A DNA stretch of 64,000 bases from contig CAZVGS010000001.1 of NCBI GenBank assembly GCA_964627245.1, positions 25,256 to 89,255 on the forward strand. Direction: 5' to 3'. The notes under the pieces were generated by a model. That model did not search any database and was not told where the DNA came from. It saw only the letters and a list, made by a program, of their open reading frames with translations. Source of the stretch: an uncultured Gammaproteobacteria bacterium (GTDB lineage: Bacteria; Patescibacteriota; Microgenomatia; Levybacterales; GWA1-39-11). This document shows positions 7,823 through 29,999 of this stretch, in pieces; position 1 is the stretch's first letter; every line of letters begins with the position of its first letter. A program made the position numbers and the translations under genes.

Positions 7823-8497
7823 CTATCCCGCTTGAGTGGCAACGGATCTGTCGTGGTGCAATGTATAACTTGTGCCTCCCTTTTTTGCCATTGAATGGTA
7901 AGACTTTTCCTGCTTCCGGCTTCTAAATAACTTGGCATACACTACCCCGTCTTGCACCTTGTCCTTCATCTTCATAACTAGCTTCAAAAAACCTTCAAAG
8001 AAAGTTAAATGATAAATACCGGGTTTTTCAGGCGGAGTATCAATAGCTACATCCCTAAATACATTTTCCAGCTCATCAGAAGAGGTCTTCAGGTTACGCA
8101 GTTCTGCCAAAATTGACTCAAGCTGTCTTCTTATCACAATGCTTGTTTCATCTTCATTCTTGCCTTCGGTATTTCTTTTGAATTCCGAAAAATATGACAA
8201 ATGCTCAGAAGTTATCTTTACTTTTTCTGACTTTTCCTCCCTTTGGGCATGTTCTTCCGCTTTTTTACCTAGACTTACAGATTTCCCTGGAGTTAGCTCA
8301 AAGCCAAAAACCTGATTCAAGACAACGTTAAATTCACTCTTTGCCTCACTTGCCACAGCATCCTTTGCACTTTTTATTGCCTCAGTATTTATTATAGGAG
8401 TCTTTTTTGCTCCCTCAAAAACTTTCTTAATAATTTGGGAGGTATCATGCTGTCTTTCCTCTCCTGAATATTTTGATGTAGTACCCGCCTTTTTCAT
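7823..8497 (-). CDS. Hypothetical Lys/Glu-rich protein, 224 aa
   Basis: Long ORF with no recognised motif. Confidence 0.45.
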   Translation of the reverse strand: MKKAGTTSKYSGEERQHDTSQIIKKVFEGAKKTPIINTEAIKSAKDAVASEAKSEFNVVLNQVFGFELTPGKSVSLGKKAEEHAQREEKSEKVKITSEHLSYFSEFKRNTEGKNEDETSIVIRRQLESILAELRNLKTSSDELENVFRDVAIDTPPEKPGIYHLTFFEGFLKLVMKMKDKVQDGVVYAKLFRSRKQEKSYHSMAKKGGTSYTLHHDRSVATQAG

Positions 8498-8554
8498 AAA
8501 ATTACACTGAAATTATAGCACTTAGCTTCAAATTTGGCAATTGCCTGAGGAGAT

Positions 8555-9412
8555 TTATAAATTTGACAGAAAGGTCACTGTTTTTTGCTGTCTTATTATT
8601 GAGGCGACAAGATATGGGTTTTTCATTATTTCCTCACGCTCTTTAGGGTTTTCTATCGAATTTAGCGCTTTCTCAATGTCTTCTTTCTCGACAGTAACTT
8701 TCTCCTCATCTGCAACTTTTCTCAGGAAAAACTCCAGCTCTAAGTCTCTTTTAGCTTTTTCCTTGTACTCATCCCGCAGTTTGTCGCCGTCAAGGTTTTT
8801 AGAATTGAGATATTGATCAAGAGTCAGTCCAAGCTTTTTTAGCTCATCAAGAAGTTGTGATAAAAGACGTGATGTCTCACTCTCAACAAGTATTTGCGGG
8901 ATTTTAATATCAGCCTCTCCTATTGCAGCTGTTAGTATTTCATCAAGGTCAGTCTTTTTCTCTTCCTTTCCGGGGACGACAATTTTTGAGTTTGAACTCA
9001 CTTTTTTTACAGCTTCCTTATAATTATTCAGCTTTACCTCAGGCTCTTCACACGTTGAAGCTGTAAAAACTATATCTGTGCCGTCAGTGAAGACCTCAAT
9101 GTGTATCTGCGGACTCAAAATCGGATTCAGATTATTTTTCTTAATAGCCTCATTGTAAGCATGCCCTATGACTTTTTTAAGCATCTCCTCTCTTACAAGC
9201 TCCATGTTGAGTTTTGCTTTTGCAACGTTTTTTGGCGCTTGTCCGGGTCTAAAACCTGCAACCTTTACGTTTTTTATAAGCTCGTTTTCAACTTGATCCT
9301 GAGCTTTTCTTGCATCACTCCATGGAACAATAACCGTCAACTCGAGAGTGCCGTCAGCTTTTCTGTTAAGACCTTCTTTATGTGTTTTTGTAACGGGTTT
9401 TTTTTCTGCCAT
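8555..9412 (-). CDS. tig: Trigger factor, short form (N-terminal ribosome-binding domain plus C-terminal domain, no PPIase domain)
   Basis: GFRPGQAPKN matches the GFRPGK signature of the trigger factor N-domain. 285 aa against ~430 aa for canonical trigger factor. Confidence 0.75.
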   Translation of the reverse strand: MAEKKPVTKTHKEGLNRKADGTLELTVIVPWSDARKAQDQVENELIKNVKVAGFRPGQAPKNVAKAKLNMELVREEMLKKVIGHAYNEAIKKNNLNPILSPQIHIEVFTDGTDIVFTASTCEEPEVKLNNYKEAVKKVSSNSKIVVPGKEEKKTDLDEILTAAIGEADIKIPQILVESETSRLLSQLLDELKKLGLTLDQYLNSKNLDGDKLRDEYKEKAKRDLELEFFLRKVADEEKVTVEKEDIEKALNSIENPKEREEIMKNPYLVASIIRQQKTVTFLSNL

Positions 9413-12296: not shown

Positions 12297-12379
12297 GCCC
12301 GAGTGGTGAAACGGTATACACGCAGTGTTCAGAACGCTGTATCCTTATGGGTGTGGAGGTTCAAATCCTCTCTCGGGCA
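12297..12379 (+). tRNA. tRNA-Leu (anticodon CAG)
   Basis: GCCCGAGTGGTGAAACGGTATACACGCAGTGTTCAGAACGCTGTATCCTTATGGGTGTGGAGGTTCAAATCCTCTCTCGGGCA. Anticodon loop TTCAGAA. Confidence 0.85.
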
Positions 12380-12482
12380 CTCAAGAAATCTAAGTAACTT
12401 GTTAGGTTTTGCGTTAAGGCTTTATTTATCGGGGCAGATTGCTATAGCATGTCTTTTTTAGTACAATAAGTAACGTTCATTT

Positions 12483-12568
12483 GGGCTTGTGGTGAAATGG
12501 TATACACGCAGCCTTGAGGTGGCTGTGCCAGTAATGGTGTGGAGGTTCAAGTCCTCTCAAGCCCACCA
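12483..12568 (+). tRNA. tRNA-Leu (anticodon GAG) with encoded CCA
   Basis: GGGCTTGTGGTGAAATGGTATACACGCAGCCTTGAGGTGGCTG...GGAGGTTCAAGTCCTCTCAAGCCCACCA. Confidence 0.85.
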
Positions 12569-12598
12569 AATAGTTCAGTTGAATGAAAACATATTTTG

Positions 12599-12671
12599 GG
12601 GCGATTAGCTCAGCTGGTAGAGCGCTTCGTTTACACCGAAGATGTCAGGGGTTCGAGCCCTCTATCGCCCA
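12599..12671 (+). tRNA. tRNA-Val (anticodon TAC)
   Basis: GGGCGATTAGCTCAGCTGGTAGAGCGCTTCGTTTACACCGAAGATGTCAGGGGTTCGAGCCCTCTATCGCCCA. Confidence 0.85.
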
Positions 12672-12729
12672 CAGAAAGAAAGACCAACATCATTTATAGA
12701 TAAGATAAACTTATCTTCTTGAAAGTTAA

Positions 12730-12802
12730 GCCAAGATTGCCAAGTTGGTCAAGGCGCGTGTCTGAAGAACACGTTATCCGGGTTCGATTCCTGGTCTTGG
12801 CA
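12730..12802 (+). tRNA. tRNA-Phe (anticodon GAA)
   Basis: GCCAAGATTGCCAAGTTGGTCAAGGCGCGTGTCTGAAGAACACGTTATCCGGGTTCGATTCCTGGTCTTGGCA. Confidence 0.85.
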
Positions 12803-12821
12803 CTAATAGTTTGTTTTTTTT

Positions 12822-12893
12822 GCGGCGGTAGTTCAGTGGTAGAACGCTTCCTTGCCAAGGAAGAGGTCGCCAGTTCAAGTCTGGTTCGCCGCT
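12822..12893 (+). tRNA. tRNA-Gly (anticodon GCC)
   Basis: GCGGCGGTAGTTCAGTGGTAGAACGCTTCCTTGCCAAGGAAGAGGTCGCCAGTTCAAGTCTGGTTCGCCGCT. Confidence 0.85.
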
Positions 12894-12934
12894 CAGAGCT
12901 TTTGTGCAATTGATTTATTTACAGAATCGTCGGA

Positions 12935-22872: not shown

Positions 22873-23883
22873 ATGTTCAGATCGGCACGGCTAAAACTAA
22901 CAGGATGGTACTTACTCATGATAATGTTCGTGAGTCTTTTTTTCTCTGTTGTAATATATGCCAACGTCGACCGCGAACTCTTCAGGCTTGAGCAGATCCA
23001 GCAAATTTCCAAGCAAAGAGCTGAGGAATACTTCGGCTATGCCCCGCCCGCACGGGTTACGACAATAATTGAGGCCAACCTTATCGATGAAGCGCGCGAT
23101 AGGCTTTTGACTGACCTTGCGGTTCTTAACGTCTGCATTTTCTTTGCTGCTGCTTGGGTAGGCTTTTTCTTAGCAGGAAGAACGCTTACACCGATTAGAA
23201 AAATGATTGACACGCAGTCGCGCTTTTTAGCGGATGCTTCTCACGAGTTAAAGACCCCTCTTACCACTCTCAGAACCGAAATTGAAATATATCTGAGGGG
23301 AAAAAAGCATTCACTTCAGGACTCTGAAAAAATTATTCAAAGCAATCTTGAGGAAGTAGTAAGACTTCAGAAGTTAACGGATAATTTGATGGAGTTAACT
23401 ACATTGGAAAAAATCGGAAAAAATATTCCTTTTGAGAAAATTGACATCGTTGAGGTTATGAATGAAGCATCAGACAGCCTCAAAAAGCTGGCAGTCAAAA
23501 AAAAGATAGAAATAATTGAAAGGTATAAAAAAGCTTATATGTACGGGCACAAGAAAAGTCTAGTAGAACTTTTTACTATTCTTTTGGATAATGCTATAAA
23601 ATATAGCCATGAAAAGTCTAAAGTCACTCTTAGCTGTGGCATAAAAAAAGGCTATGTTGTAATTAAGGTTGAAGACCGGGGTATAGGAATTCTCGAGGAA
23701 GACATAGACCATATTTTTGACCGTTTTTACCGCGCAGACAAATCAAGAAATATCTCAAAAATCCCGGGCTATGGACTTGGTCTTTCTATAGCAAGGGAAA
23801 TTGTAAAGCTTCACAATGGCCGGATCTACGCAAAAAGGCTAAAGAAAGGAACTCTATTCACCGTTGAGCTCCCTAGGGCTTAA
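22873..23883 (+). CDS. Sensor histidine kinase
   Basis: N-terminal TM segment, H-box ADASHELKTPLTTL, and a HATPase region. Forms a two-component pair with the upstream regulator. Confidence 0.88.
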   Translation: MFRSARLKLTGWYLLMIMFVSLFFSVVIYANVDRELFRLEQIQQISKQRAEEYFGYAPPARVTTIIEANLIDEARDRLLTDLAVLNVCIFFAAAWVGFFLAGRTLTPIRKMIDTQSRFLADASHELKTPLTTLRTEIEIYLRGKKHSLQDSEKIIQSNLEEVVRLQKLTDNLMELTTLEKIGKNIPFEKIDIVEVMNEASDSLKKLAVKKKIEIIERYKKAYMYGHKKSLVELFTILLDNAIKYSHEKSKVTLSCGIKKGYVVIKVEDRGIGILEEDIDHIFDRFYRADKSRNISKIPGYGLGLSIAREIVKLHNGRIYAKRLKKGTLFTVELPRA

Positions 23884-24138
23884 CCTTAAATCTCTTTCAT
23901 TTGCTAGAGTAATTTTATTCGCTCTATTAAGTTTTTTTATTTTCGCTTCGCGGGTGAGTGCTTCAGAAAGACTCTGACAAGTCTCATAATAAACAAGCTT
24001 CACAGGGCGTCTTCCCGAAGTATATTTTGCGCCTCCGGAGAGTATCCCATTGTGCTCCTTTACCCTTTTTTCAAGGTCTTTTGCAATACCGCAGTATAGT
24101 GTTCCGTCACTGCATTTTAGAAGATAAACATAATACAT
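23854..24138 (-). CDS. GIY-YIG nuclease family protein (UPF0213/YhbQ-like)
   Basis: MYYVYLLKCSDGTLYCGIAKDLEKRVKEHN matches the GIY-YIG core. Confidence 0.75.
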   Translation of the reverse strand: MYYVYLLKCSDGTLYCGIAKDLEKRVKEHNGILSGGAKYTSGRRPVKLVYYETCQSLSEALTREAKIKKLNRANKITLANERDLRLSPRELNGE

Positions 24139-24720: not shown

Positions 24721-26085
24721 ATGTCAAGATTTTTTACTGCCAGGATTTTATTGTCTTTTGCAATTCTTACGGGTGCAATTGCTGTAGTAGTTGCTGCAAC
24801 ATTCGCATTCTTGTCGGATACCGAAACCTCCACAGCTAACTTTTTAGAAGCCGGAGATATAGATCTTAAGATAGATAACACAAGTTACTACAATGGCGCT
24901 CAAAGTCCGACAACAACTTGGGATCTTGATGACCTGGACACACACTTATTCTTTAATTTTCAAGATCTTAAACCCGGAGACTGGGGAGAGGATACGATTT
25001 CAATCCATGTAAATACAAATGATGCATGGGCTTGTTTCAACTCGACATTAACCTCTGATGATGACGTCAGCTCAAATGAACCCGAACTGCTTGTTGATGT
25101 ACCTGAAGATAATAATGATGATTTTGACGGTGAACTGGGCAGCAATATCGACTTTCTGCTTTGGGTAGATGATGGCGACAATGTACTTGAACAAGGAGAA
25201 AGCGATAACAATATAATAGCTTTTGGAAAAGCAAATTCTGTTCTACAGAACATGTCAGAAAGCCTCGCAGATTCAGTTTCGGGACTAGTAGTAGATGACG
25301 GACAGCCTTTAAGCGGGGGCCAAACCTATTACATCGCGAAGGCATGGTGCTTTGGAAATATGACTCTTGCTCCACTCCCTGAAGGACAAGGGGTAAATCC
25401 AACTGTTGACGGTGGAATTTTGTGCGATGGCTCAGGTTTTGATAACTCCACTCAAACAGATAAGCTTACTGCAGATATTTCTTTTACAACAGTGCAATTC
25501 AGAAATAACCCTGACTTTGTCTGCTTTGAAGAGCCTCAATTTGCCTGCGGAGAAGAATCGGATCCAATATACGCTGTAGCATTTTCAGAAAACAATCAGG
25601 GTCTAAGAAAAAATGGCACTGCAATTTTGCCTGATAGAACTGATCCGAATGTCGCTTTGGGTGTTCCGCAAAGCGCAGGAATTGCAAATGACGCCCCTGT
25701 AGTTGCAGGTTCATTTTTCAGTCTTGGTTTTCCGCACGCAAATAACCTCAATACTCCCGGAAGCATAGTTTTTGATATGGGTGAGACTTTTTATCCTAAC
25801 AATGGCGGAGACGACATCATGGTGTATGAGGTAACTGGCGGAACTTACCCCGTTGAAACAGTTAAAGTTGAAGCAAAGCTAGAAACCGGTGACTCCTGGA
25901 CTAATCTTGGCACTATTAACCGAGACGGGGGCGTTGAAATGTCACCGCTTACGTCAGCCCGCTACATAAGACTTACCGAAGCAAGCAATATAGCACCATT
26001 TGAAGCAACGGCCGACGGATATGATCTGGATGCAGTTAAAGCATTATGCACACCCGAAAACCAAATCGACCCGGGAGGGCAATAA
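24721..26085 (+). CDS. TasA/camelysin-like secreted protein with a SipW-cognate signal peptide (paralog 1)
   Basis: N-terminus ...AATFAFLSDTETSTANFLEAGDIDLKID and the DLKPGD motif parallel Bacillus TasA/CalY (established family). The protein is acidic and D-rich. Confidence 0.75.
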   Translation: MSRFFTARILLSFAILTGAIAVVVAATFAFLSDTETSTANFLEAGDIDLKIDNTSYYNGAQSPTTTWDLDDLDTHLFFNFQDLKPGDWGEDTISIHVNTNDAWACFNSTLTSDDDVSSNEPELLVDVPEDNNDDFDGELGSNIDFLLWVDDGDNVLEQGESDNNIIAFGKANSVLQNMSESLADSVSGLVVDDGQPLSGGQTYYIAKAWCFGNMTLAPLPEGQGVNPTVDGGILCDGSGFDNSTQTDKLTADISFTTVQFRNNPDFVCFEEPQFACGEESDPIYAVAFSENNQGLRKNGTAILPDRTDPNVALGVPQSAGIANDAPVVAGSFFSLGFPHANNLNTPGSIVFDMGETFYPNNGGDDIMVYEVTGGTYPVETVKVEAKLETGDSWTNLGTINRDGGVEMSPLTSARYIRLTEASNIAPFEATADGYDLDAVKALCTPENQIDPGGQ

Positions 26086-26150: not shown

Positions 26151-27692
26151 ATGACAAAATTTTTAAATACTAGAATTTTACTATCAGGAGCAACAATTTT
26201 AACAGCATCAGCTGTTATTATTGGTGCAACTTTCGCATTCTTTTCAGACACTGAGACTTCTAGTGGCAACACATTTGCCGCCGGTGGTATTGATCTTCTA
26301 GTAGACAGCCAAGCACATTATGCAGGACTTACATGTATCGAAGGCGTATGGGTTGAAGATCAAGCTGAGGAATCAACACGTCCTGATTTAATAGGCTTGC
26401 CATGTTCAGGAACTTGGACCCTAACCGATCTAGGACCTGCTCATACCTTCTTTAACCTCGGAGATCTCAAACCGGGGGACGAAGGAGAGAATACTATATC
26501 TCTTCATGTTGAAAACAACGACGCATACGTTTGTGCTGTAGTTAACAACTTGGAGGATAATGACAATGGTCTTACTGAGCCTGAAGAAGACGATGGCGAT
26601 ACTACAGGAGGTGATGGAGAGGGAGAATTGTCTGCTGCTCTCAGATTCTTTGCATGGGCTGACACAGGCCCAAATGACATCTTCGATGGAGATGATCCGC
26701 TTGAAGGAGACAACATTTGGCAAGAAGGCGAACAGCCTCTATTCTCCAATGGAGAAGGACCTGCAAGTGATGTTTTGGGAGGAGTTTCATACCCTCTTTT
26801 TACGCCTAGTACAAATTCCTTACCAGCAGGAGACACAGCATATGTTGGTCTTTACTGGTGCTTTGGGGAAATTTCGATTGGTGCTGGCACACTTACCTGC
26901 AATGGTGAGCTTGTCAACAACATCACACAGACTGACAGCATGACTGCTGATCTTAGCTTCTATGTTGAACAGGCAAGAAATAACGAGGACTTTACTTGTC
27001 CTACACCTGACCAAATAGAACCTGACAACAATATTACAGTTGTTGTTGAAGAAGAAGATCTTGAAACGGCAAGTCTTGTAACAGCTAAAACGAACGGTAG
27101 TTGGTTTTTCTATAACGATACAGCAGATTCAATCATGACGATTGATCAGTTCCTAGGTGACGGAGGAGAAAACCACATGGATGAAGTTGCAGGCGTCGGC
27201 AGTGCAAAAATGGTACTGCATGAAGCTTCAGCTCGTTACAACATTGCTACCTATAAGTACAGTGATATTAAGCTTGCTGACATAGATGAACTTTCATATC
27301 GAATATATGATGGTTCGGCTTCAAGCCAAACTCCATACCTTCACTTTAATGTTGACTTCAACAATAGTGATACATGGCAGAATCGCTTAGTAATGGTTCC
27401 TTCAGGTGTAGCTTCTGAAACATGGGCTACAGTTGATGCAATCGATGGAGGTAGTGCAATGTGGACATACTCCGGTGCAAACTGGCCAGCTGGCTTAGTT
27501 GACGGCACTGGTTCTACGCCAGGCACGACCCCACGTTCTTGGGATGACATTCTAGCGAATTATCCTGATGCGGAAACCCGCTCAACAGATTCATTCTTAG
27601 GTGTTAGGGTAGGTCACCCTGGGCCTGATGGTGAAATCGGATATGTGGATTGGATTAACTTCAACGGTGAAGTGTCTAATTTCGAGAACTAA
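26151..27692 (+). CDS. TasA/camelysin-like secreted protein with a SipW-cognate signal peptide (paralog 2)
   Basis: GATFAFFSDTETSSGNTFAAGGIDLLVD and DLKPGDEGENTISLHV are paralogous to the first ~280 aa of 24721-26085. Strong SD AGGAGGTGAAAT-ATG. Confidence 0.75.
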   Translation: MTKFLNTRILLSGATILTASAVIIGATFAFFSDTETSSGNTFAAGGIDLLVDSQAHYAGLTCIEGVWVEDQAEESTRPDLIGLPCSGTWTLTDLGPAHTFFNLGDLKPGDEGENTISLHVENNDAYVCAVVNNLEDNDNGLTEPEEDDGDTTGGDGEGELSAALRFFAWADTGPNDIFDGDDPLEGDNIWQEGEQPLFSNGEGPASDVLGGVSYPLFTPSTNSLPAGDTAYVGLYWCFGEISIGAGTLTCNGELVNNITQTDSMTADLSFYVEQARNNEDFTCPTPDQIEPDNNITVVVEEEDLETASLVTAKTNGSWFFYNDTADSIMTIDQFLGDGGENHMDEVAGVGSAKMVLHEASARYNIATYKYSDIKLADIDELSYRIYDGSASSQTPYLHFNVDFNNSDTWQNRLVMVPSGVASETWATVDAIDGGSAMWTYSGANWPAGLVDGTGSTPGTTPRSWDDILANYPDAETRSTDSFLGVRVGHPGPDGEIGYVDWINFNGEVSNFEN

Positions 27693-27709
27693 ATTCTGTT
27701 ACTCTAGCC

Positions 27710-27765
27710 CTGCTGTCCAGGGCTAGAGGGCAGACCGGAGGAAAGGAACGTTTTTTCCGGTCTTC
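27710..27765 (+). terminator. Two consecutive stable hairpins after TasA-like paralog 2
   Basis: CTCTAGCCCTGctgtcCAGGGCTAGAG (11-bp stem), then AGACCGGA...TCCGGTCT. There is no clean U-tract. Confidence 0.4.
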
Positions 27766-27772
27766 CTATTAA

Positions 27773-28807
27773 ATGGGCAAAGTCATTAAGCTTTTTACAA
27801 TCCTTTTTTCCATTGTTTTAATTGCATCTGCATTTTTTGTGGCAATGCTGGCATTTCCTATCTTTGGCAATCAGGCTCTAATTGTGCGCTCGGGATCAAT
27901 GGAGCCTACCATTGGAGTCGGATCAGTCGTTGTAGTTAGACAAAGCAACACTAGCACCTACCAAGAAGGTGATGTCATATCCTTCCGTTATGACAAAGAC
28001 ACGATAATAACCCACAGGATTTTTGAAGTTATAAAATCTCCAAATGGTAATATTTCTTACAAGACAAAAGGGGATGCTAACGAAGAGGAAGATAACTGGG
28101 TTGTTGCTTCAGAAGATATTCTAGGAAGGAACTATTTCACAATTCCGGAATTCGGTAAGTTGCTCGCCTTCGCACGCTCAAAATATGGTTTTCCTTTACT
28201 GATAATCTTTCCCTCAAGTCTTGTCATCTTGCTTGAGATTGTAAGCATCATAAAAGAAGTTAAAAAAGGAAAAAAGAAAAAAGAGTTAATTCACCCGCTG
28301 GTTTTTCCAAAGGATAACGCAGTAGACTACCAAACGGTCTTTACAAAGAAAAATTTTGGTCTTTTGAAGGTCTTACTGCCCTTCGTGGTTTTTGCATTTT
28401 TTATCCAAAGTACATCTGCATTCTTCTCCGATACCGAAACGTCCTCGAATAATTACTTTCAGGCAGCAACGACTTTTGGAACACCCACCCCTACACCTTC
28501 CGTGCCGGTCACTCCAACGCCTACAAATACTCCCACCCCAACACCTACCCCGGGTGGCGGGTGCGGGTCAAGTATTATTATTTCTGGGAATGGAGCGTGG
28601 TCTATCAACAAAGCTTATATAAAATGTATTCTTGAAAATTCCGTTACCCAGACGAATAACACAAATGTTAATACAAACGTAGAGACAAATTCTGATACCG
28701 GCGAAAATTCTTCAAATGGAAATGACGGAGGAGACAACAATACCGAAAGCGGGAACGCAAGTAATACTGTTGAGGTAACAGTCGAAGGCTCAGTAAATGA
28801 AAACTAG
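27773..28807 (+). CDS. sipW: SipW-type signal peptidase I (aa 1 to ~170) fused in frame to a small SipW-substrate-like domain (aa ~196-344)
   Basis: Catalytic Ser motif SGSMEPTIGVG and a His in ITHRIFEV, with TM segments at both ends as in SipW. A second hydrophobic stretch then leads into AFFSDTETSSNNYF, a PT-rich linker and a short C-terminal domain. No stop codon separates the two parts. Confidence 0.7.
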   Translation: MGKVIKLFTILFSIVLIASAFFVAMLAFPIFGNQALIVRSGSMEPTIGVGSVVVVRQSNTSTYQEGDVISFRYDKDTIITHRIFEVIKSPNGNISYKTKGDANEEEDNWVVASEDILGRNYFTIPEFGKLLAFARSKYGFPLLIIFPSSLVILLEIVSIIKEVKKGKKKKELIHPLVFPKDNAVDYQTVFTKKNFGLLKVLLPFVVFAFFIQSTSAFFSDTETSSNNYFQAATTFGTPTPTPSVPVTPTPTNTPTPTPTPGGGCGSSIIISGNGAWSINKAYIKCILENSVTQTNNTNVNTNVETNSDTGENSSNGNDGGDNNTESGNASNTVEVTVEGSVNEN

Positions 28808-29334
28808 CTTACAGGCTTTGCGACTACTACGAAGCGCTTGGAGTCCAGAAATCCTGTGCAGGTGTAAAGAGTGATCCTGGTGTCATTGGTAGAGTTAATA
28901 ATATAACTTTCTGAAGGTTCTACAACTGCAGTATATTCCACCTCAAATTCTCTCTTGTCCCCATTTTTAAGTGTAATAAATATCCTTTCTCCCGGTCTTA
29001 CGGACGGTAGGTCTTTCAGCAAACTCTCCCAGTTGTGCCCATACAATACGCTATTTCCCTTTTGTCCGGGCTCAGGCGTAGAAGCAAGGTAGGAAATGCC
29101 TTTATGAGTTGTTTCCCAATTACTGCCCTCTTTTATTGCGGGAACTATCGGCAATTGCAGATTTATTGAAGGAATTTCAATAGTATTTGGCGGGGTTATG
29201 CTTTTCTGGAGATTACCAGGCTTATTCTCAAAGGATAAAGGCTTTGGGGAGTGACGTAAATACACTAAGTAAAATCCAAAAAACACAAGAATAATTCCTG
29301 TGAGAGTTAACAATCTGGAAATTAAGCGCAACAT
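28804..29334 (-). CDS. Sortase (class E-like)
   Basis: N-terminal TM anchor. Active-site signature RITLYTCTG (TLxTC) and His motif VLYGHN. Confidence 0.8.
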   Translation of the reverse strand: MLRLISRLLTLTGIILVFFGFYLVYLRHSPKPLSFENKPGNLQKSITPPNTIEIPSINLQLPIVPAIKEGSNWETTHKGISYLASTPEPGQKGNSVLYGHNWESLLKDLPSVRPGERIFITLKNGDKREFEVEYTAVVEPSESYIINSTNDTRITLYTCTGFLDSKRFVVVAKPVS

Positions 29335-29363: not shown

Positions 29364-29960
29364 TTAGTTAGCTTTTCTCCTCAAGAGGATACCCGTGAGA
29401 GTCAAAAGAACTCCCGCACCAAAAGTTTCAGCAATAAATAGGAGGTTACCTGTAGAAGCAAGGCTTGTACCTTGAGCAGACTGGACAATTGATCCTAACC
29501 CATCAGATCTTCCATCAGTACGTCCATCTGTTCTGCCGTCTCCTCCGCCTGAATTCGTGGTAGACGAAGACTTGCAAGAGTAAGTGATGTTCTTTGCCAA
29601 ATATGAGCCTTCAGAAAGACCCCATGCGGTTCCGTCTGGAATAAATATCCAGCCTTCTTTTTGAAGAACCTTAATTTCATCCTGAGTTAGATTTGATGTA
29701 TTTAACCAATTTGTCTGGATACCTTCTCCATTCTCGCCGCAAAAACACTGCATTGCTTTACCATTTTCCTGCAAGTGTACAGCATCGGATCCTATTTTTG
29801 AGCCAACACCAGGAATGCCGTGTGTTCCATTGTCATAATTTGCGATTACTTCACCTTTTGGCGAAAGACACGAAGGGAATTCAGAGATTTGCTCAGAGTG
29901 AGCGCTTCCTGCGAAGACAAGAAATGCAATTGATAGAAGAAAAAACGATGACTTCTTCAT
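29364..29960 (-). CDS. Sortase-substrate surface protein with an LASTG sorting signal
   Basis: Signal peptide. C-terminal LASTG, then a hydrophobic stretch and RRKAN. GDGRTDGRTDGRSDG repeats. Start chosen at MKKSSFF, just downstream of the consensus promoter. Confidence 0.7.
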   Translation of the reverse strand: MKKSSFFLLSIAFLVFAGSAHSEQISEFPSCLSPKGEVIANYDNGTHGIPGVGSKIGSDAVHLQENGKAMQCFCGENGEGIQTNWLNTSNLTQDEIKVLQKEGWIFIPDGTAWGLSEGSYLAKNITYSCKSSSTTNSGGGDGRTDGRTDGRSDGLGSIVQSAQGTSLASTGNLLFIAETFGAGVLLTLTGILLRRKAN

Positions 29961-29970
29961 AACTGGAGGC

Positions 29971-29999
29971 ATTATAGTATATAACTACAGGTTTGTCAA
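29971..29999 (-). promoter_or_regulatory. Consensus sigma70 promoter (TTGACA-17-TATAAT) for the LASTG-protein gene, near-leaderless
   Basis: Minus-strand read: gcTTGACAaacctgtagttatatacTATAATgcc. The ATG lies ~10 nt after the -10 with no SD. Confidence 0.6.

Follow-up and report, generated by a model that had tools for sequence, protein, structure and literature searches.

The window, by which we mean the whole stretch of 64,000 nucleotides analysed here (positions 25,256 to 89,255 of contig CAZVGS010000001.1, assembly GCA_964627245.1), comes from an uncultured bacterium of Patescibacteria type. It contains two genes for TasA-like fibre subunits followed by a gene in which a SipW-type signal peptidase continues, in the same open reading frame (ORF), into a segment that resembles the substrates of such peptidases. 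To our knowledge, signal peptidases and their substrates are normally separate proteins. An earlier note had proposed such a fusion from the letters of the DNA alone, and our comparison with related proteins and loci allowed us to examine both the fusion and its possible role in fibre formation. The fused gene, its parts and the two upstream subunit genes are as follows (ER, endoplasmic reticulum; AF2, AlphaFold2).

27773-28807, forward strand: whole fused ORF, 344 amino acids (aa) plus stop, single reading frame
27773-28282, forward strand: SipW-type (ER/archaeal-type, S26B) signal peptidase domain, residues 1-170, recognised by TIGR02228, catalytic residues, AF2 and Foldseek
27896-27898, 28013-28015 and 28073-28075, forward strand: codons of the catalytic residues S42, H81 and D101
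28262-28363, forward strand: basic loop, predicted to be cytoplasmic, residues 164-197, nine Lys/Arg versus three Asp/Glu
28364-28420, forward strand: putative internal SipW-type signal peptide, h-region residues 198-211 (LKVLLPFVVFAFFI), c-region residues 212-216 (QSTSA)
28421-28480, forward strand: TasA-type donor-strand-like segment, residues 217-236 (FFSDTETSSNNYFQAATTFG), the conserved core
28481-28552, forward strand: Pro/Thr linker, residues 237-260, 10 Thr and 10 Pro in 24 residues
28553-28804, forward strand: Asn/Gly/Ser/Thr-rich module, residues 261-344, 84 aa
24721-26085, forward strand: TasA-like subunit 1, 454 aa, with N-terminal SipW-type signal peptide, FLSDTETSTANFLEAGDIDL strand, jelly-roll region and C-terminal domain
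26151-27692, forward strand: TasA-like subunit 2, 513 aa, with signal peptide ending GATFA, mature start FFSDTETSSGNTFAAGGIDL, jelly-roll domain of ~290 aa and C-terminal domain

A peptidase and a strand segment in one reading frame

The fused ORF runs through 344 codons without a stop or a frameshift, so that the unbroken passage from the peptidase into the second part is as the earlier note had read it, and an identical protein (P0001) is encoded on a 225,696-bp NCBI contig. Three homologues with 43-55% identity (P0003, P0005 and P0015) align over 99-100% of the 344-aa query, and the frame is therefore sound to the last residue. If, instead, a missed stop or a frameshift had joined two genes during sequencing or assembly, the architecture would be an artefact, and the lone close match without a fusion (P0060, locus L004) does look split by a frameshift, with its tail in the +1 frame and in an assembly full of broken genes. 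However, the three homologues support the frame to its end and the whole clade is fused in independent assemblies of different sources. We give an artefact next to no probability and reject it on this conservation evidence. The fusion is real, and the original observation is confirmed.

Residues 1 to ~170 constitute a complete SipW-type peptidase, as had been claimed. The NCBIfam model TIGR02228 (archaeal-type signal peptidase I) matches residues 8-156 with 99.8 bits (cut-off 51.85 bits), and the catalytic residues lie in the motifs SGSMEPT (S42), ITHR (H81) and KGDAN (D101), all three being invariant in an alignment of 87 fused proteins. The AF2 model has predicted local distance difference test (pLDDT) values above 90 for residues 1-170, with helices at residues 2-27 and 139-172. 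Its best Foldseek matches in the PDB are human SEC11C/SEC11A (7p2q_A and 7p2p_A), with Streptococcus pyogenes SipA (4n31) in third place, and the C-terminal domain of lambda repressor is matched as well. By its motifs, its score and its fold with flanking helices, the domain belongs to the ER/archaeal-type signal peptidases I (SipW, SEC11; MEROPS S26B). Pfam PF10502 is also matched (25 bits, cut-off 22.9), together with a weak match to Pfam S24, and the Bacillus SipW model NF046067 covers residues 23-169 with 121.7 bits, under its equivalog cut-off of 190. Judged by these profiles, the window protein is SipW-type, yet no equivalog of Bacillus SipW.

Hydropathy analysis revealed three hydrophobic segments, at residues ~8-30 (TM1), 140-163 (TM2) and 198-211. 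The third of them corresponds to the hydrophobic stretch which the earlier note had seen behind the peptidase, together with a cleavage-region motif: residues 198-216 are followed by the motif at 217-236, and TIGR04088 (SipW-dependent-type signal peptide) matches residues 207-233 with 20.5 bits, above its cut-off of 19. The N-terminal position that belongs to this family is not found here, where the segment starts at residue 198 behind a complete peptidase; it is N-terminal only in orthologues encoded by two genes, such as those of locus L010. In the AF2 model, residues 196-214 form a helix (pLDDT 60-80) and the remainder after it is unstructured.

The segment FFSDTETSSNNYFQAATTFG matches the start of the mature protein in both upstream TasA-like proteins. 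A profile of the motif, run against all ORFs of the window, matched exactly three, namely the fused ORF (63.9 bits) and the two upstream ORFs (34.7 and 27.3 bits); the motif, which the earlier note had seen in all three, is thus common to these and no others in the 64 kb, and this coincidence is no chance event. Fused and free TasA-like proteins have F-F-S-D-T-E-T-S-x-x-N-x-F-x-A in common, and the internal segment thereby contains the FFSD.E.S..N.F core of bona fide SipW substrates. In the 87-sequence alignment, D220 and N227 are invariant and S224, A231 and F235 are at least 90% conserved. Past position +11 the consensus sequences of fused and free proteins part ways: the free TasA-like proteins go on with A-G-x-[IVL]-D (AG.IDL), through which the chain enters the jelly roll, whereas the clade of the window has A-A-x-x-F-[PG] and then a linker. 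The fused tail thus has a strand but lacks an acceptor domain. Likewise, no match to PF12389 (TasA/camelysin) was found on the fused protein, and only 84 aa lie beyond the linker, where a jelly-roll acceptor would have to be. At the level of sequence, the segment thus qualifies as a strand donor, having a core in common with the local TasA-like proteins and no acceptor domain.

A TasA-like fold preceded by an N-terminal donor strand is found in both upstream proteins, and PF12389 matches both of them. Subunit 1 aligns with the TasA-like family and scores 20.9 bits with PF12389 over residues 12-151, slightly under the cut-off. For the N-terminal 295 residues of subunit 2, AF2 gave a mean pLDDT of 85.8, with residues 31-43 (FFSDTETSSGNTF) disordered in the monomer; a search of the PDB by sequence returned no match for this protein or its family profile, and it is tied to TasA through fold comparison only.

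Of the parts that follow the strand, the Pro/Thr linker was correctly described in the earlier note, whereas the "~90-aa Asn/Thr-rich domain" needs correction, since this module has 84 aa and Thr ranks fourth in its composition (21% Asn, 14% Gly, 13% Ser and 11% Thr). The module has no Pfam match and AF2 pLDDT values below 55, and it shares 47% identity over 53 aa with a module inside an LTD protein of locus L003.

Conservation and origin of the fusion

A word-indexed search yielded 315 homologues, the best 120 of which were aligned. About 116 of these 120 contain, in one ORF after the peptidase, a third hydrophobic segment and the motif A[FY]FSDTETS..N.FQAA..F, with linkers of varying length and 14 to 290 residues past the motif. 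A further 116 sequences came from an exhaustive search among 50%-identity cluster representatives, and 101 of them have the motif downstream of SipW. Altogether, the D-x6-N core lies beyond residue 150 in 210 of 236 proteins (~89%), which have the same single-ORF architecture. The tails past the motif range from 14 to 618 aa overall and include LTD, RTX-like or other larger domains. The minimal fused homologues stop 14-26 aa past the motif, and in those the strand is therefore the sole conserved extracellular element.

In 80 loci taken from species-representative genomes, fused genes occur in records labelled Levybacteria (L006, L007), Chisholmbacteria (L018) and Minisyncoccia (L020), as well as in Patescibacteria group (L027, L069) and in Woesearchaeota and Nanoarchaeia (L035, L084), although such labels of metagenome-assembled genomes need care. 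In many other Patescibacteria, a separate gene right after sipW, often overlapping or abutting it, encodes a product with the same signal peptide and motif. The closest approach between the two arrangements is the Roizmanbacteria locus L010, where an in-frame TAA-ATG alone parts sipW from the tail gene: SipW ends in YFRNG, the stop is followed by MNRKILFLIFLVAAFGIIAAKFIFSFFTDTAVSSSNTFAAAAEFPTPIP and, finally, an LTD, and the tail gene product begins MNRKILF and has its predicted site between FIFS and FFTDTAVSSSNTFAAAAEFPTP, ahead of the LTD. In this pair, SipW, the strand FF[ST]D..S..N.F.AA..FP, the Pro/Thr linker and the variable extracellular domain follow one another as in the fused gene; the pair differs in consisting of two genes and in having its signal peptide at an N-terminus. 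Since the tail is elsewhere an independent pre-protein gene after sipW, the fused form arose by the joining of adjacent genes, and did so more than once. In a rough neighbour-joining tree of the SipW domains, computed without support values, the window falls inside an all-fused clade with L010 as its sister; the remaining fused cases lie dispersed among split ones, a pattern suggestive of repeated fusions or fissions. A stop between the two parts in orthologous loci, which the earlier note had named as evidence against a fusion, is thus indeed present in some lineages (e.g. L010). Since all members of the window's clade are fused, this stop indicates the source of the fusion and not an error here.

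The existence of two-gene versions in other lineages would also agree with the tail being made additionally, or only, by internal initiation within the fused ORF. The earlier note had pointed to an in-frame TTG at Leu197/198; codon 198 (28364-28366) is TTG and in frame, and codon 197 is CTT. Shine-Dalgarno motifs are rare in this genome, being present ahead of only 9 of 40 long ORFs, and the absence of one is therefore uninformative about a start at the TTG. However, no start-type residue is conserved at this position across homologues, an n-region of M-K alone would be minimal, and the frame is kept in hundreds of diverged sequences despite differing linkers, which would be needless for independent genes. 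We regard two proteins from one ORF as very improbable.

Taken together, the ~89% of homologues with the same architecture, the motif, the predicted topology and the split relatives provide computational support for the central claim of the earlier note that a peptidase is joined to its own candidate substrate. The literature searched contained no earlier description of a fusion between a signal peptidase and its substrate in the SipW/TasA system, and the sources that name the fused proteins call them only "signal peptidase" or "signal peptidase I". The fusion is a variant of the known SipW/TasA/TapA system for which we did not find a prior description.

Predicted processing and possible role in fibre assembly

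The N-terminal tail of the fused protein contains two Lys/Arg (charge +2) and the loop between the second and third hydrophobic segments is basic. By comparison with the split pair in L010, this loop corresponds to the C-terminal tail of SipW plus the n-region of the internal signal peptide. From this charge pattern and the positive-inside rule, the catalytic domain and everything past residue 216 are therefore placed outside, so that the cleavage site and the active site are predicted to lie on one side of the membrane. The predicted cut falls between A216 and F217 (nucleotides 28420/28421; ...QSTSA/FFSDTETS...) and would give a product of 128 aa, whose mature N-terminus, FFSDTETSSNNYFQ, would be a non-tryptic start. 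When sequences were aligned on the invariant Asp and positions equated with the TasA site T25-W26-A27/A28, the register of the window protein was that of A27/A28 in TasA. Position -3 is Thr, Ser or Ala in 90% of fused and 99% of free TasA-like proteins, and position -1 is Ala or Ser in 93% and 99%, respectively. In fused proteins, the median length of the uncharged stretch ahead of the site is 17 residues, as in a signal peptide rather than an anchor. Both P1' and P2' are aromatic in the window protein, which fits a SipW-specific site: LepB-type peptidases are reported to handle an aromatic P2' poorly, and TasA, whose P2' residue is Phe, relies on the dedicated SipW for its cleavage (PMC10269814). 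We infer the cleavage, and its occurrence in cis or in trans, from such sequence features.

In Bacillus subtilis, mature TasA starts at residue 28, and residues 28-38 form the donor strand that is inserted in the next subunit (PMC9674648). TapA has an N-terminus similar to that of TasA, is thought to give the first strand and needs only its N-terminal part to do so; the tapA stop overlaps the sipW start and the two proteins have similar abundances, hinting at an association (PMC10151520). The window resembles this tapA-sipW-tasA system in that an ER-type signal peptidase is encoded in an operon with TasA-family subunits (PMC10151520, PMC9674648). Moreover, the substrates of B. subtilis SipW include a minor protein that, once mature, starts with a mimic of the TasA donor strand, and the cleavage register T-x-A/x-F-x-D is the same. 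The window differs in its gene order (two tasA-like genes, then sipW plus strand donor), in having peptidase and donor in one polypeptide, and in an internal signal peptide forming a third membrane pass in a host of Patescibacteria type. Furthermore, no TapA-like V-set immunoglobulin domain was recognised in its tail, which has no Pfam match and an AF2 pLDDT below 55.

We favour, with moderate confidence, the reading that this conserved fusion of sipW with a substrate would be cut after A216 to free a strand donor, which would prime or cap the fibre in the manner of TapA. The protein would be inserted with three membrane passes: from an N-terminus inside, the chain would lead to the catalytic domain on the outer side, return to the basic loop on the inner side and cross once more, from inside to outside, with the third segment. 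This short third segment would serve as an internal SipW-type signal peptide, and the SipW active site of the same or a neighbouring molecule would cut after A216, the spent signal peptide remaining on the enzyme as a third helix. The 128-aa extracellular protein freed in this way would have a TasA-type donor strand as its new N-terminus. It could then fill the empty groove of the first TasA-like subunit, supplying the first strand, with which the two TasA-like subunits encoded upstream would change to a form that polymerises, and would stay as cap or anchor of the fibre. A strand-only protein donates a strand yet cannot accept one, and would therefore be placed at one fibre end; the TapA-like role itself is proposed by analogy. 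A fusion would fit the low and similar abundance of TapA and SipW and their translational coupling in B. subtilis. It would also fit a model from Clostridium perfringens in which cutting by SipW and the exchange of strands at the membrane are coupled (PMC11580942).

The same arrangement could also operate uncut. The third helix would then be a stable anchor that leaves the strand covalently on SipW, and the enzyme itself would anchor the first TasA-like subunit in the membrane or chaperone it in cis, with the fibre base at the site of processing. TapA colocalises with the membrane and is suspected to associate with SipW (PMC10151520), in the model for C. perfringens the signal peptide keeps subunits in the membrane while strands are exchanged (PMC11580942), and the very short tails, if cut, would free a mere peptide of 35-45 aa. 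On the other hand, the small residues at -3 and -1 would have no obvious reason to be kept at such frequencies without cutting, the hydrophobic stretch is short, and the same segment is an ordinary N-terminal signal peptide in split orthologues. Moreover, the strands of TasA and TapA begin at a free mature N-terminus. We consider both the permanent tether and an anchoring or chaperoning enzyme unlikely.

A third possibility is that the motif occupies the groove of SipW, where it would regulate or inhibit the enzyme or remain as a tethered product, and that the tail plays no part in a fibre. The signal-peptide part would stay on the enzyme whether cut or uncut, and the motif is more variable than in free subunits, both of which agree with such a pseudo-substrate. 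However, conservation reaches 15-19 residues past the site (N227, A231, F235) and covers the equivalent of the TasA donor strand, and the groove of a signal peptidase is not expected to contact residues so far beyond the cleavage site. In addition, the tails bear extracellular adhesin-type domains (LTD, RTX-like repeats), and the split versions are ordinary secreted proteins. We therefore assign this explanation a low probability.

Several points weigh against the cut and TapA-like strand donor that we favour. The AF2 pLDDT is only 55-64 over the motif, and the spent signal peptide, still tethered to the enzyme, might block the substrate groove. No similarity of the tail to TapA was detectable beyond the strand, and the motif varies more in fused proteins than in free subunits. 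Co-variation between the fused strand and the TasA strands of the same locus was non-significant in 16 loci (p ~0.10 for the variable positions -3 to +12, and 0.79 for +3 to +12), a result that favours neither side.

A further-reaching version, which we put forward as a speculative and rather improbable extension, is that SipW serves as a platform for fibre assembly: each molecule would have one built-in primer strand, released by a single-turnover cut in cis and handed to the TasA-like subunit processed next. If true, there would be a one-to-one link between processing, initiation and fibre number at a membrane site, and the fusion, having arisen repeatedly in Patescibacteria and in archaea labelled DPANN, would represent a minimal usher or chaperone for donor-strand fibres in cells without an outer membrane.

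Self-processing has a precedent within the same peptidase fold, in LexA, lambda cI and UmuD (clan SF, family S24), which contain the site at which they are cut and process themselves in cis or in trans. These proteins are soluble, use a Ser-Lys dyad and are cut to inactivate a repressor, whereas the window protein is predicted to be a membrane Ser-His-Asp peptidase with a secreted fibre product. A signal-peptidase-fold protein dedicated to pilus assembly is found in S. pyogenes SipA/LepA, the PDB title describing a homologue essential for pilus polymerisation. SipA is not known to have catalytic activity and serves sortase-built pili, whereas the window protein retains all catalytic residues. 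The loci sipW-bsaA-bsaB-bsaC of C. perfringens and sipW-calY1-bc1280-calY2 of B. cereus likewise combine SipW with two TasA-like subunits and accessory proteins, and include a VWA-domain protein as do the related loci L003 and L004, but a fusion of peptidase and substrate has not been described for them (PMC11580942, PMC10151520).

A conserved and repeatedly evolved fusion can be taken as "Rosetta stone" evidence that SipW and a strand-donating initiator of TasA fibres act together physically, a cooperation hitherto only hinted at for TapA and SipW in B. subtilis. It would offer a testable system for the start of donor-strand fibres at the membrane without chaperone-usher machinery, and for self-processing by an ER-type signal peptidase. 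Furthermore, it suggests that ultrasmall, probably host-attached Patescibacteria, and perhaps DPANN archaea, commonly bear TasA-like fibres on their surface whose adhesin-like ends (LTD, RTX-like) vary.

Neighbouring elements and related loci

The spacer of 80 nt between subunit 2 and the fused sipW contains one further feature.

27702-27763, forward strand: two tandem, nearly perfect hairpins

Their RNA has a minimum free energy of -41.9 kcal/mol (z -4.98), and none of 200 shuffled sequences was equally stable. We speculate that the hairpins act as an attenuator or terminator which sets the ratio of major subunit to peptidase and keeps the fusion below the major subunits.

No second SipW gene was found within the 64-kb window. 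In locus L086 of the close homologue P0004, an unfused SipW paralogue of 180 aa (8127-8669; SGSMEPA, ITHR, KGDAN) directly follows the fused one and could process the fused protein in trans. Downstream in the window, a sortase gene on the reverse strand (28804-29334) converges on the fused ORF, the 3' ends overlapping by 4 nt, and beside it a reverse-strand gene (29364-29972) encodes a 202-aa protein that ends in LASTGN, a hydrophobic segment and RRKAN and is a likely sortase substrate. No sortase signal was seen on the TasA-like proteins. L086, which is the locus of the closest relative, has a sortase too, 2.5 kb upstream.

The C-terminal domain of subunit 1 (25561-26082) is related to the tail of the Levybacteria fused SipW P0019 (36% over 69 aa, pairwise E 8e-7). 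This likeness and the Asn-rich tail recurring in the LTD protein of L003 indicate that extracellular modules are shuffled between free subunits and fused tails.

In related loci, the product of the gene after fused or split sipW often has an A-x-A signal peptide of the ordinary kind, the mature start [VI]GDL.[VI], the motifs PGD and GNEFQ..FDL, and then an LTD or RTX-like part. This arrangement occurs at 9380-10483 in L001 and 6765-8072 in L003, and also in L006-L010, L018, L041 and L084. Such "strandless" proteins were seen in nine related loci, and none is encoded in the window. Their comparison by hhalign gave E 0.0016 with a probability of 16%, and their PF12389 matches are sub-threshold. 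As judged from these profile matches, they may be acceptor-only end subunits, similar to FimH, with a TasA-like domain but no donor strand. Two loci (L003, 3680-4822; L004, 3681-4847) have, upstream of the TasA-like gene, a gene for a VWA-domain protein with TasA-like N-terminal parts, which recalls BsaC of C. perfringens.

Several starts in the window directly follow TATAAT-like boxes which, together with the scarcity of Shine-Dalgarno motifs, suggests frequent leaderless or Shine-Dalgarno-independent initiation. The window has 14 tRNA genes in total, five of them in a cluster at 12297-12894 (Leu-CAG, Leu-GAG, Val-TAC, Phe-GAA and Gly-GCC). Finally, a reverse-strand ORF of 94 aa at 23854-24138, starting MYYVYLLKCSDGTLYCGIAKDLEKRVKEHN, has by eye the look of a small GIY-YIG-type nuclease.

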